From Coxiella sp. RIFCSPHIGHO2_12_FULL_42_15 (lineage in GTDB: Bacteria; Pseudomonadota; Gammaproteobacteria; Coxiellales; Coxiellaceae): a DNA stretch of 64,000 nt. A program made the position numbers. The stretch lies in assembly GCA_001797285.1 (NCBI GenBank), contig MGOZ01000018.1, positions 33,965 to 97,964 on the forward strand. The letters are read 5' to 3'. Of the stretch, positions 60,001-63,000 are shown piece by piece (position 1 is the stretch's first letter; every line of letters begins with the position of its first letter).

Positions 60001-63000
60001 AAAACATCCTAAGGTGGTTGCCATTGGTGAAACGGGATTAGACTATTATTACAATAAAGAAAATCTTGAAGAAATGCGGCAACGTTTTCGCACACAAATT
60101 CGTGCGGCCCGCAAAGCGAATAAGCCGTTAATTATCCACACGCGTGATGCTCGTGATGATACATTACAAATTATGCAACAAGAGCAAGCGAGTGAAGTGA
60201 GAGGCGTTATGCATTGCTTTACAGAAAGCTGGGAGATGGCAGAAAAAGCAATGGCATTGGGATTTTATATTTCATTTAGCGGTATTGTTACTTTTGGAAA
60301 TGCAAAAAATGTGGTGAGTGTTGCAGAAAAAGTGCCATTAGATCGCCTGTTAATTGAGACGGATTCTCCCTATTTAACTCCCGTTCCTTTTCGTGGCAAA
60401 CCCAATGGACCACAATATGTGCGTTACGTTGCTGATCGTATTGCAGAGTTAAAAGCAATGGATTTCTCTTTAGTGGCCAGTCAAACCACAGCGAACTTTT
60501 TTCAACTATTTAGAGATGCGAAACCATTATGAAAGCGGTATTGGCGCGATATTTTCAATTTTCTGAAAATAACACGTCTTTTCGACAAGAAACAATAGCG
60601 GGAGTGACGACCTTTCTCACCATGGTTTACATTATTTTTGTGAATCCATCTGTTTTAGCGGCAGCGGGAATGGATCATGGTGCTGTGTTTGTAGCAACGT
60701 GTTTGGTGGTCGTGGTGGGCAGTTTTTTAATGGGCTTGCTTTCGCGATTTCCCATTGCGTTAGCGCCGGCGATGGCATTAAACGTTTATTTTACTTACAT
60801 TATTGTGCAAGATATTGGTCTGAGTTGGCAAGATGCCTTAGGGGCCGTTTTTTTTGCGTCGGTTATTTTTCTAATAATCACGCTAACAAAATTGCGTGAG
60901 TGGATTGTTGTTGCTATTCCAGAAAGTTTAAATGCAGCAATTACGGTTGGTTTGGGTTTATTTATTGCATTAATTGCATTGAAAAGCGCGGGCATTGTTG
61001 TTCCCAATTCAAAAACCTTAATGGCATTGGGACATTTAGACCTGCGTGCTCTGTTTTTTTGTTTGGGTTTTTTTCTAATTGTGGTGCTTGATTATTATCA
61101 AGTTCCTGGTGCCATTCTTATTGGTATTTTGGTCGTCACGCTGGTGGGTTTGGCAGCAGAACTGTCCGAATTTCACGGGATTTTTTCGTTACCTCCTTCG
61201 CTTACACCAACATTTTTACAAATGAGTTTTGTTCAACTGGATAATTTAAAGGGGATTGCAGCTATTTTTTCGATACTTTTTGTCAATTTATTTGATTGCA
61301 CAGGAACGTTAGTTGGGCTTATTCAGCATGCACGCATTATTGAAAAAGATCGCTCTGTTGTACGAGTTTCTCGGGGTTTGTTAGCTAACAGCATGACTTC
61401 TGTCTTTGGCGCTTTGCTGGGAACCTCTAGTCCTAGTCCTTATTTAGAGAGTGCTGCAGGCATTCGTGCGGGGGGGCGGACGGGATTTACGGCTTGGGTT
61501 GTTGGAATATTATTTTTATTTTCTTTATTTTTATCACCATTAGCGGCCACGATACCAGATTTTGCAACGGCGCCCGCATTATTATTCGTTGCCTGCTTAA
61601 TGATTCGCAATGTGGTGGAAATTCCCTGGGATGATATTACGGAATCTATTCCCGGCGCATTAACCGCCATTATGATTCCGTATACCCTGTCCATTGCCAA
61701 TGGCATTGGTCTTGGCATCATCAGTTATACGATGATCAAATTAATTGGTCGAAAAATTCATGAGTTAAATGCGACGTTAATTGTACTTGCGCTCTTATTT
61801 GTATTTTATTTTATTATGCAAGCGACTGTTGTGAATTTGTAAGGGGTAGTTTTTCATTACCCGTTGGCGGCACACCGAGCCTCGCCGTTCGATGTGAAAT
61901 ATCCGGGTTAATCCGAGGCGACACCCTTGCCGTGTGTGCGACTATTGTTCTTTGATGCGAAACATCCAGAATAGGAATATGTTGTTCTTGACAAAATGCC
62001 TTGCTGGTTATCCCACACGGAGGGTCGGGTTCACTTTGAAATGCCGTTGCGACGCAGTCTGATTGATTTTTGAAGACATCTGTTTTAGGGCACTGTGGTA
62101 TTTGTGACAATGGAAGGCAAGTGATGGTATTGAAGTCTAAGCAAAAGGGTTGTTCTGCTTCAATATCGTTTCTTGGAATACAGATGCAATAGCGATAATC
62201 ATCCGGTGAGCAACCGTCTTCATCCGGTCCGCACAGAAAATAATTTTCAGCGCTAAAGGTAATAGCAGTGGATAATATCAAGCAGGTCATTAAGTAGTAT
62301 CGCATTGTTTTCCCTATAAAAATCTCCGCCAGCAATTCCCCAAGTTCATTATGTGGCAACTTATTGTTTTAGAAAACAAAAGATTGAAACAGTGGGGGAT
62401 TATCCAGGGGGAGCTTTGCGCGCTCCCCCTTGATCGCGAGGATGCAGGTCCCCTGCAGCCCGCGTCAATGAAAGGGAAGGAATTCCCCATCGAAAGATGG
62501 GGAATTCCTGAATCTCCGCCTCACGATGATACTTATGGTATATGAAGAATTCATGTTCGCCATACCGTGTAATATCCAGGTTAACCTGGATATTTCATGT
62601 TGCTTTTTGAAGATGACGGCCACACGAAGTGCCCTGCCGCCAACGGGAAGGTCTTTTGTTTTCAGGGGCGCACATCCTGTGCTCGACGCTCCTTACCCTC
62701 CCTGGTCGCGACGCCCTTCAAACAAAAGACCTTCCCGTTGGCGGCACACCGACCCTCGCAGTTCGATGTGAAATATCCGGGTTAATGATGTATTTTTTCA
62801 ATCGCAGCCACTTGGGCTAATCCATGAATAACCGCTGCAATACGAACTGCATGCTGAATCGCTGTTTTGCTGATACCCGATTTTACCAATACGTTACTGT
62901 GTGAACTGATACACATTCCGCAACCATTAATTGCAGAGACCGCCAGTGAAAATAATTCAAAATCCTTTTTATCAATACCAGGATTTGCCATTACACTCAT

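Follow-up and report, generated by a model that had tools for sequence, protein, structure and literature searches.

What is the long palindromic repeat that recurs in this stretch of Coxiellaceae DNA, and what put it there? The window, by which we mean the whole stretch analysed, comprises 64,000 nucleotides (C18:33965-97964) of a 1.64-Mb assembly in 53 contigs that is 85% complete and has about 42% G+C. Judged from its sequence, the uncultured source organism is a Coxiellaceae bacterium, not C. burnetii; the identity of its RNase E to proteins from Coxiellaceae MAGs, Candidatus Paracoxiella and Coxiella endosymbionts does not exceed about 70%. An earlier sequence-only reading had placed copies or partial copies of the repeat at five loci. 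All five were found where it had put them, one with slightly different boundaries (47406-47571 in place of 47412-47572), and the flanks it had given are likewise present (CTAA/CTAA, TTAG/TTAA and TTAA/TTAA, and a TTAA after 61907). The BLASTN census of the genome returned no additional copies in the window beyond these five loci and a solo terminus. The features are as follows.

62585-62781, plus strand: full-length element of 197 bp, used as the reference copy; 92-98% identity to about 22 other full-length copies in the genome.
62581-62584, no strand: left target-site duplication TTAA of the reference copy, identical to the right one at 62782-62785.
62782-62785, no strand: right target-site duplication TTAA of the reference copy; its minus-strand TAA terminates the AhpD-like gene.
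62585-62597, plus strand: left terminal inverted repeat CCTGGATATTTCA, agreeing at 12 of 13 positions with the termini of the IS1380-family IS on L116 (CCT for CCC).
62769-62781, plus strand: right terminal inverted repeat TGAAATATCCGGG, matching the end of the IS exactly over 14 nt.
62635-62746, plus strand: inner palindromic module, with 33-nt arms (62635-62667 and 62714-62746) and an asymmetric 46-nt core between them.
62568-62580, minus strand: solo terminus TGTAATATCCAGG, facing the full copy over a common TTAA.
43328-43526, minus strand: full-length copy of 199 bp with decayed termini, flanked by TTAG (43324-43327) and TTAA (43527-43530).
21803-21901, minus strand: 99-bp form shortened by internal deletion, with both termini kept and CTAA duplicated on the two sides (21799-21802, 21902-21905).
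47406-47571, plus strand: copy truncated at both ends (element positions 19-184), without termini or duplication.
61860-61907, plus strand: fragment of the right end, covering element positions 150-197, with TTAA immediately after it at 61908-61911.

In the 197-bp element, outer arms roughly 50 and 35 bp long enclose a 112-bp palindrome, and the element ends in 13-bp inverted repeats (CCYGGATATTTCA / TGAAATATCCRGG). The reference copy folds into a long hairpin, with z-scores of -10.5 as DNA and -8.7 as RNA. It has no coding capacity, its sole open reading frames being read-throughs of the palindrome of 40-60 aa. The recurrent peptides of this length that had been taken for translations of the element are just that: GTG CCC TGC CGC CAA CGG GAA GGT CTT TTG TTT TCA GGG in the inner stem reads as MPCRQREGLLFSG. 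Searching the window for YTAR followed by CCYGGATATTTCA, with up to two mismatches, gave eight matches against 0.06 expected from shuffles, the eighth being the solo terminus. The copy that has lost both ends is placed between converging methyltransferase and RNase E genes.

A genome census, which the earlier reading had proposed, was made by BLASTN of the 197-bp and 99-bp copies against all 1.64 Mb and gave 114 loci. About 22 of these are full length (192-199 bp), six further loci measure 166-189 bp, and the remainder either keep both ends around an internal deletion (59-131 bp) or are fragments with a single end. The exact string TAR plus CCYGGATATTTCA occurs 63 times in the genome, and its reversed control not once. 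Pairs of termini at long range in the same genome proved to be just chance pairings of separate MITEs, and searching the genome contigs for an exact 27-mer of the inner stem gave nothing. The element lies below the size limit of about 500 bp and is non-coding and multicopy, with terminal inverted repeats and a duplication of fixed length, as is usual for prokaryotic MITEs; it is an ordinary MITE, previously undescribed.

The junctions of the short forms vary (61/158, 50/148, 59/169, 51/169, 49/169, 36/160 and 34/162 in element positions). They are approximately symmetric about the element centre and lie at microhomologies of 2-5 nt, and for this reason we read the short forms as palindrome-driven internal deletions and not as precursors of the long form. 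Some deleted forms appear to have transposed again, as they combine a common junction with intact duplications that differ by locus. Five copies of a 72-bp form have one deletion junction in common; three of them carry such duplications (CTAG, TTAA), and in the remaining two the outer end has decayed. The 59-bp form is present in three copies with one junction, two with intact duplications (CTAG, CTAA). At five loci in the genome, the window one included, a complete copy faces a solo terminus of 13-20 nt over a single YTAR. The simplest reading is that a second element would have inserted into the duplicated target of a resident copy, after which most of one of the two was deleted.

Pairing left and right termini at 40-260 bp apart yielded 43 two-ended copies, and in 31 of them the same 4-mer is found on both sides (TTAG 9, TTAA 7, CTAA 6, CTAG 5, CTAT 2, ATAG 1, AATT 1). 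When the right flanks were shuffled among copies, a mean of 6.6 matches was obtained, with a maximum of 18 in 100,000 trials. Off-motif flanks are likewise duplicated (CTAT/CTAT, ATAG/ATAG), and agreement at the fifth flanking base is not above chance; the duplicated stretch measures exactly 4 bp. What flanks the element is a genuine target-site duplication of 4 bp, made at YTAR or, more loosely, NTAN. The YTAR duplication proposed from a handful of window copies is thereby upheld, and its presence genome-wide supports the accompanying claim that these are transposed elements and not REP hairpins.

Two insertions in the window coincide with stop codons. The TAG of the TTAG flank ends a 519-aa ORF (41768-43327), and the TAA of the TTAA flank ends the CMD-family (AhpD-like) ORF on the minus strand (62782-63327). 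The statement that insertions sit exactly on gene ends is therefore correct for both, but genome-wide the pattern is mainly a by-product of the motif. Twenty of the 102 TAR-flanked termini abut the stop codon of an open frame 100 or more codons long, compared with 1.3% of all YTAR sites. Intragenic insertions would not survive, however, and the appropriate baseline, in which intergenic and stop-codon YTAR sites are tolerated, is 14%; this explains most of the stop-codon landing, the observed figure being 20 of 96 loci (p of about 0.05). On these numbers we rejected an extra stop-codon preference as a separate property. Landing on stop codons reflects mostly a target that contains TAA or TAG, together with selection; since the duplication regenerates the stop codon, such insertions are harmless. 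Comparison of the AhpD C-terminus with a 59%-identical homologue was uninformative, the ends differing by two residues.

Empty sites were sought in related genomes and within the genome itself. The coding DNA of the two same-genus genomes (G001 and G002) is only 66-73% identical to that of the source genome, so that intergenic sites cannot be aligned with them. One locus (C51) gave a paralogous candidate by BLAST within the genome, which was rejected because it showed an inverted flank duplication and no clean empty site.

Which transposase moved the element? We searched the flank-plus-terminus pattern in 64 genomes of the family; two further genera, g2 and g9, carry it. In G003 the pattern recurs at 37-55 bp from the ends of contigs, as expected where a multicopy IS has not been assembled, and at least eight ends of the same IS are at contig ends there, flanked by ATAG, TTAA or CTAA. 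In G058, from a related genus, the terminus adjoins a strong match to Pfam DDE_Tnp_1_4 (E 3.9e-147), and a complete IS could be delimited.

L116 of G058, 1168-2756, strand not given: IS1380-family IS of 1589 bp, with ends CCCGGATATTTCA...TGAAATATCCGGG and TTAT/TTAT flanks.

This IS codes for a 396-aa protein and a frameshifted 80-aa C-terminus; the transposase reaches 374 bits with NCBIfam model NF033539 (IS1380 family transposase), for which the cut-off is 180. An autonomous IS with the same termini, which had been named as something to look for, was thus found outside the element's own genome, and it is the single complete one recovered in the family, with its transposase gene frameshifted. 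The termini of the MITE agree with those of IS1380-family ISs at 12-13 of 13 positions. Similarity ends after 13-14 nt and the interior of the MITE is unrelated, so that only the ends are common to the two. This fits the use of surrogate ends by IS1380-family transposases, since ISPme1 and ISEcp1 are known to act on such ends and to mobilise unrelated DNA (PMC9330008).

Relatives of the transposase (48-65% at the amino acid level) are encoded by ISs 1567-1745 bp long that are multicopy in Verrucomicrobia, Thiodiazotropha, Arenicellales, Terriglobia and others. These have the same or closely similar termini and, in the copies shown with both boundaries, CTAG or CTAA identical on the two sides. 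These findings document an IS1380 lineage that is widespread, keeps its CCCGGATATTTCA ends conserved and inserts at CTAR/YTAR. Two other Coxiellaceae genera (G061, G062, G064 and G041) carry MITEs of 54-237 bp with the same termini; of the nine shown with both ends, five are flanked by the same tetranucleotide (TTAA or CTAG) on the two sides, and the subterminal sequence of these MITEs resembles the right arm of the 197-bp element.

Termini, duplication length and target, the marks of mobilisation by an IS, all match IS1380-family ISs, and by sequence comparison the MITE shares all three with a defined IS1380 lineage. IS1380 itself makes a 4-bp duplication. IS1247, of the same family, makes one of 5 bp (PMC3281130). 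Among the ISs of this family (which includes IS1380, IS1247, ISPme1 and ISEcp1), the CCCGGATATTTCA-ended lineage in particular has the 13-bp termini, the 4-bp duplication and the YTAR/CTAR target of the MITE, which differs from an IS of about 1.6 kb in being 197 bp long, without a transposase gene and with an unrelated interior. No IS1380-family transposase, intact or degraded, was found in the 85%-complete assembly (no PF13701 match, and nothing below E 0.1 by tblastn) or in two genomes of the same genus. Repeats often stay unassembled. Taken together, it is highly probable that the element is a non-coding MITE with 13-bp CCYGGATATTTCA termini that was spread in trans by an IS1380-family DDE transposase.

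The sequence-only reading had compared the target with that of IS5, and mobilisation by an IS5-family transposase deserves to be weighed. A 4-bp YTAR duplication is IS5-group behaviour, and one IS5-like N-terminal fragment (DUF4096, 81 bits) exists in the genome at C40:43803-44003. The resemblance at YTAR stands, but what lies upstream of that fragment (CTAG followed by AAAGTGGGCTGAATAATT) bears no relation to the end of the MITE, domains of the types DDE_Tnp_1, DDE_Tnp_1_2 and DDE_Tnp_4 are absent from the genome, and the autonomous IS that does match belongs to the IS1380 family. Own-genome searches for transposases of the IS4/IS5, Harbinger-like, IS1380 and RAYT types were all negative, the only remnants being the DUF4096 fragment and two IS110-family fragments. 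We regard an IS5-derived MITE as very unlikely.

Slightly less credible still is a relationship to palindromes of the REP or QMITE2 type, which would have been spread by RAYT or by recombination, would be related to those of C. burnetii and would serve as landing pads for IS1111-type elements. The element is a long palindrome, mostly extragenic, and similar in size to QMITE2 (150-190 bp; PMC5896051). An IS110-family remnant lies 70 bp from a MITE fragment at C40:42578-42618; it is truncated and has no clear insertion junction. Against this, the genome has no Y1/RAYT transposase (PF01797), and the fixed 4-bp YTAR duplication departs from the variable 7-11-nt direct repeats described for QMITE2, which has terminal inverted repeats of 23-29 bp and a GTAG REP core targeted by IS1111 (PMC5896051). 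Neither the terminus pattern nor the inner core has a match in the 13 genomes searched of the Coxiella-like genus g3, so the suggested link to the IS1111 targets of C. burnetii gains no support. To our knowledge, REPs make no target duplication at all. As a caution, not every Coxiellaceae palindrome should be equated with the IS1111 target of C. burnetii.

An IS630/Tc1-type element that duplicates TA alone, the outer R and Y belonging to a longer inverted terminus and the 4-bp duplication being an artefact, would suit the TTAA and CTAG flanks equally well, YTAR being its own reverse complement as a class, but it is refuted by the 27 copies with a non-palindromic left flank, which include 18 direct repeats (TTAG/TTAG 9, CTAA/CTAA 6, CTAT/CTAT 2, ATAG/ATAG 1) and none of the inverted pairings it requires (such as TTAG/CTAA), so that we give it practically no weight. 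The same counts show that the tetranucleotide is not part of a longer inverted terminus, which, with the 31 matching pairs of flanks, disposes of the earlier worry that TTAA or CTAA might belong to the element's end or be inconsistently duplicated.

Mobilisation in trans by an IS1380-family transposase thus remains the preferred reading. From the anatomy, copy number, 4-bp direct duplication and identity of terminus and target described above, we infer the following order of events. A transposase of this family would once have been present in the lineage and would have recognised the 13-bp termini of the MITE. Insertion at YTAR (loosely NTAN) would have proceeded by a 4-nt staggered cut, whose repair would leave the tetranucleotide duplicated on both sides. 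The 197-bp master copy would be a composite of short IS1380-type arms around a separate 112-bp palindromic module; it would have been amplified to at least 22 full-length copies, and palindrome-driven deletions would then have produced the shorter forms, among them the 72-bp and 59-bp ones that apparently moved again. The most abundant repeat of the genome would thereby gain a definite mechanism and a partner family. The element would also account for several features of Coxiellaceae MAGs, namely spurious ORFs of 40-60 aa, C-terminal extensions of genes, contig breaks and apparent stop-codon targeting.

The closest mechanistic relatives of the element are the IS1380-family ISs; among published MITEs, QMITE1 and QMITE2 of C. 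burnetii come nearest to it. Like these, it has a Coxiellaceae host, a similar size and a strong palindromic fold, numbers tens of copies, some long and some short, which often lie at gene 3' ends, and lacks a partner transposase in its genome (Wachter et al. 2018, PMC5896051). It is set apart from QMITE2, as described, by 13-bp terminal repeats and the fixed 4-bp YTAR duplication. The Correia elements of Neisseria (CREE/NEMIS; 100-160 bp) are also abundant MITEs with terminal inverted repeats and a TA-containing target, with size classes due to internal deletion and frequent gene-end positions. Unlike the present element, they have a TA-only duplication, terminal repeats of 26 bp and an IHF site, and we know of no link between them and IS1380. 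Two MITE reviews searched for it make no mention of IS1380.

The origin of the inner module is a separate matter. In a genome of another genus (G010), 12 stand-alone repeats match the inner core at 83-88% identity, and one repeat in G002 does so at 79%; beyond these and its own genome, the core was found in no other of the 64 genomes searched. In G010 the core lies within a separate palindromic repeat of about 125-130 bp that has its own termini (TAGTGTTCCGTCAAATAAG...) and no IS1380-type ends, and for this reason the most plausible reading of the long form is a composite in which two repeat families are joined. A bolder proposal is that the asymmetric core of 46-60 nt is itself a functional module, which could act as a structured RNA or as a site for protein binding or recombination, and was amplified on an IS1380-type MITE. 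We think this improbable. Its identity of 83-88% between genera compares with 66-73% for protein-coding DNA even within the genus. Folding of the isolated core was no better than that of shuffled sequence, and an Rfam search returned nothing near threshold. Were the proposal true, the core would be a repeat family of its own in one genus that was picked up here by an IS1380-type MITE.

The conservation of this inner core across genera is the single mildly unusual feature of the element.

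The centre of the MITE recurs in another genus of the Coxiellaceae. In the genome G010, a palindromic repeat roughly 125-130 bp long and bounded by the termini (C)TAGTGTTCCGTCAAATAAG...CTTATTTGACGGAATACTAG is present in at least 12 copies, and its asymmetric core shares 83-88% identity with the MITE centre. This core is more conserved between the genera than coding DNA is within the genus. The stem sequences of the two repeats are not alike; their complementarity is kept.

Features of the MITE and its relatives:
Window 62661-62720: MITE core matching the G010 repeat
G010 loci L002, L005, L007, L009 and L251-L258: 12 copies of the palindromic repeat
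Window 62568-62584: solo terminus facing a complete MITE copy
Contigs C42:7545, C47:7395, C50:100075 and C53:6297-6310 of the same genome as the window: further solo termini with a complete copy
C51:28742-28938: full-length MITE copy with changed terminal bases
G041 loci L155 and L157-L160: elements of about 20 bp

At the solo-terminus loci, a complete copy is opposed by an isolated terminus of 13-20 nt with a single YTAR between them, and a 24-bp palindrome results. This arrangement probably arose by re-insertion at a resident copy's duplicated target, followed by deletion. The C51 copy ends in TCTGG...CCAGA; its flanks are inverted copies, 28 bp long, of a different hairpin repeat (GGAATTCCCCATCGAAAAATGAGGAATT) and show no direct duplication, an arrangement that looks like palindrome symmetrisation via template switching. 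In G041, another Coxiellaceae genome, about 20 bp alone (CCCGGATATTTCATACCGGG and variants) lie between YTAR on either side at no fewer than five loci, each a minimal remnant or footprint of the MITE's element type.

The conserved ends CCCGGATATTTCAC.../...GTGAAATATCCGGG are common to an IS1380 lineage with CTAG or CTAA duplications. Complete genomes from several phyla contain this lineage in multiple copies (L173-L250); among its hosts are Verrucomicrobia, Thiodiazotropha, Arenicellales, Terriglobia and Alphaproteobacteria.

Remnants of other transposases, and an ORF in the window:
C40:42578-44003 (L091): IS110-family and IS5-like remnant region
C48:1-309 (L092): N-terminal part of an IS110-family transposase, running off the contig start
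Window 61814-62359, minus strand: 181-aa ORF without a Pfam match

On C40, a right-end fragment of the MITE and the C-terminal half of an IS110-family transposase are 70 bp apart; an IS5-like N-terminal fragment (DUF4096) follows farther on, split by a family-B repeat copy. The 181-aa ORF overlaps the permease gene at the 3' end of the latter and crosses the MITE fragment at 61860-61907; its C-terminal part is therefore probably repeat-derived.

Other short repeat families, with 40-110 matches each across the genome that contains the window, occupy the ends of many of its contigs (for example C8:1-83, C13:1-134 and C46:1-108). The density of small repeats in this genome is unusually high, and its assembly is broken by them.
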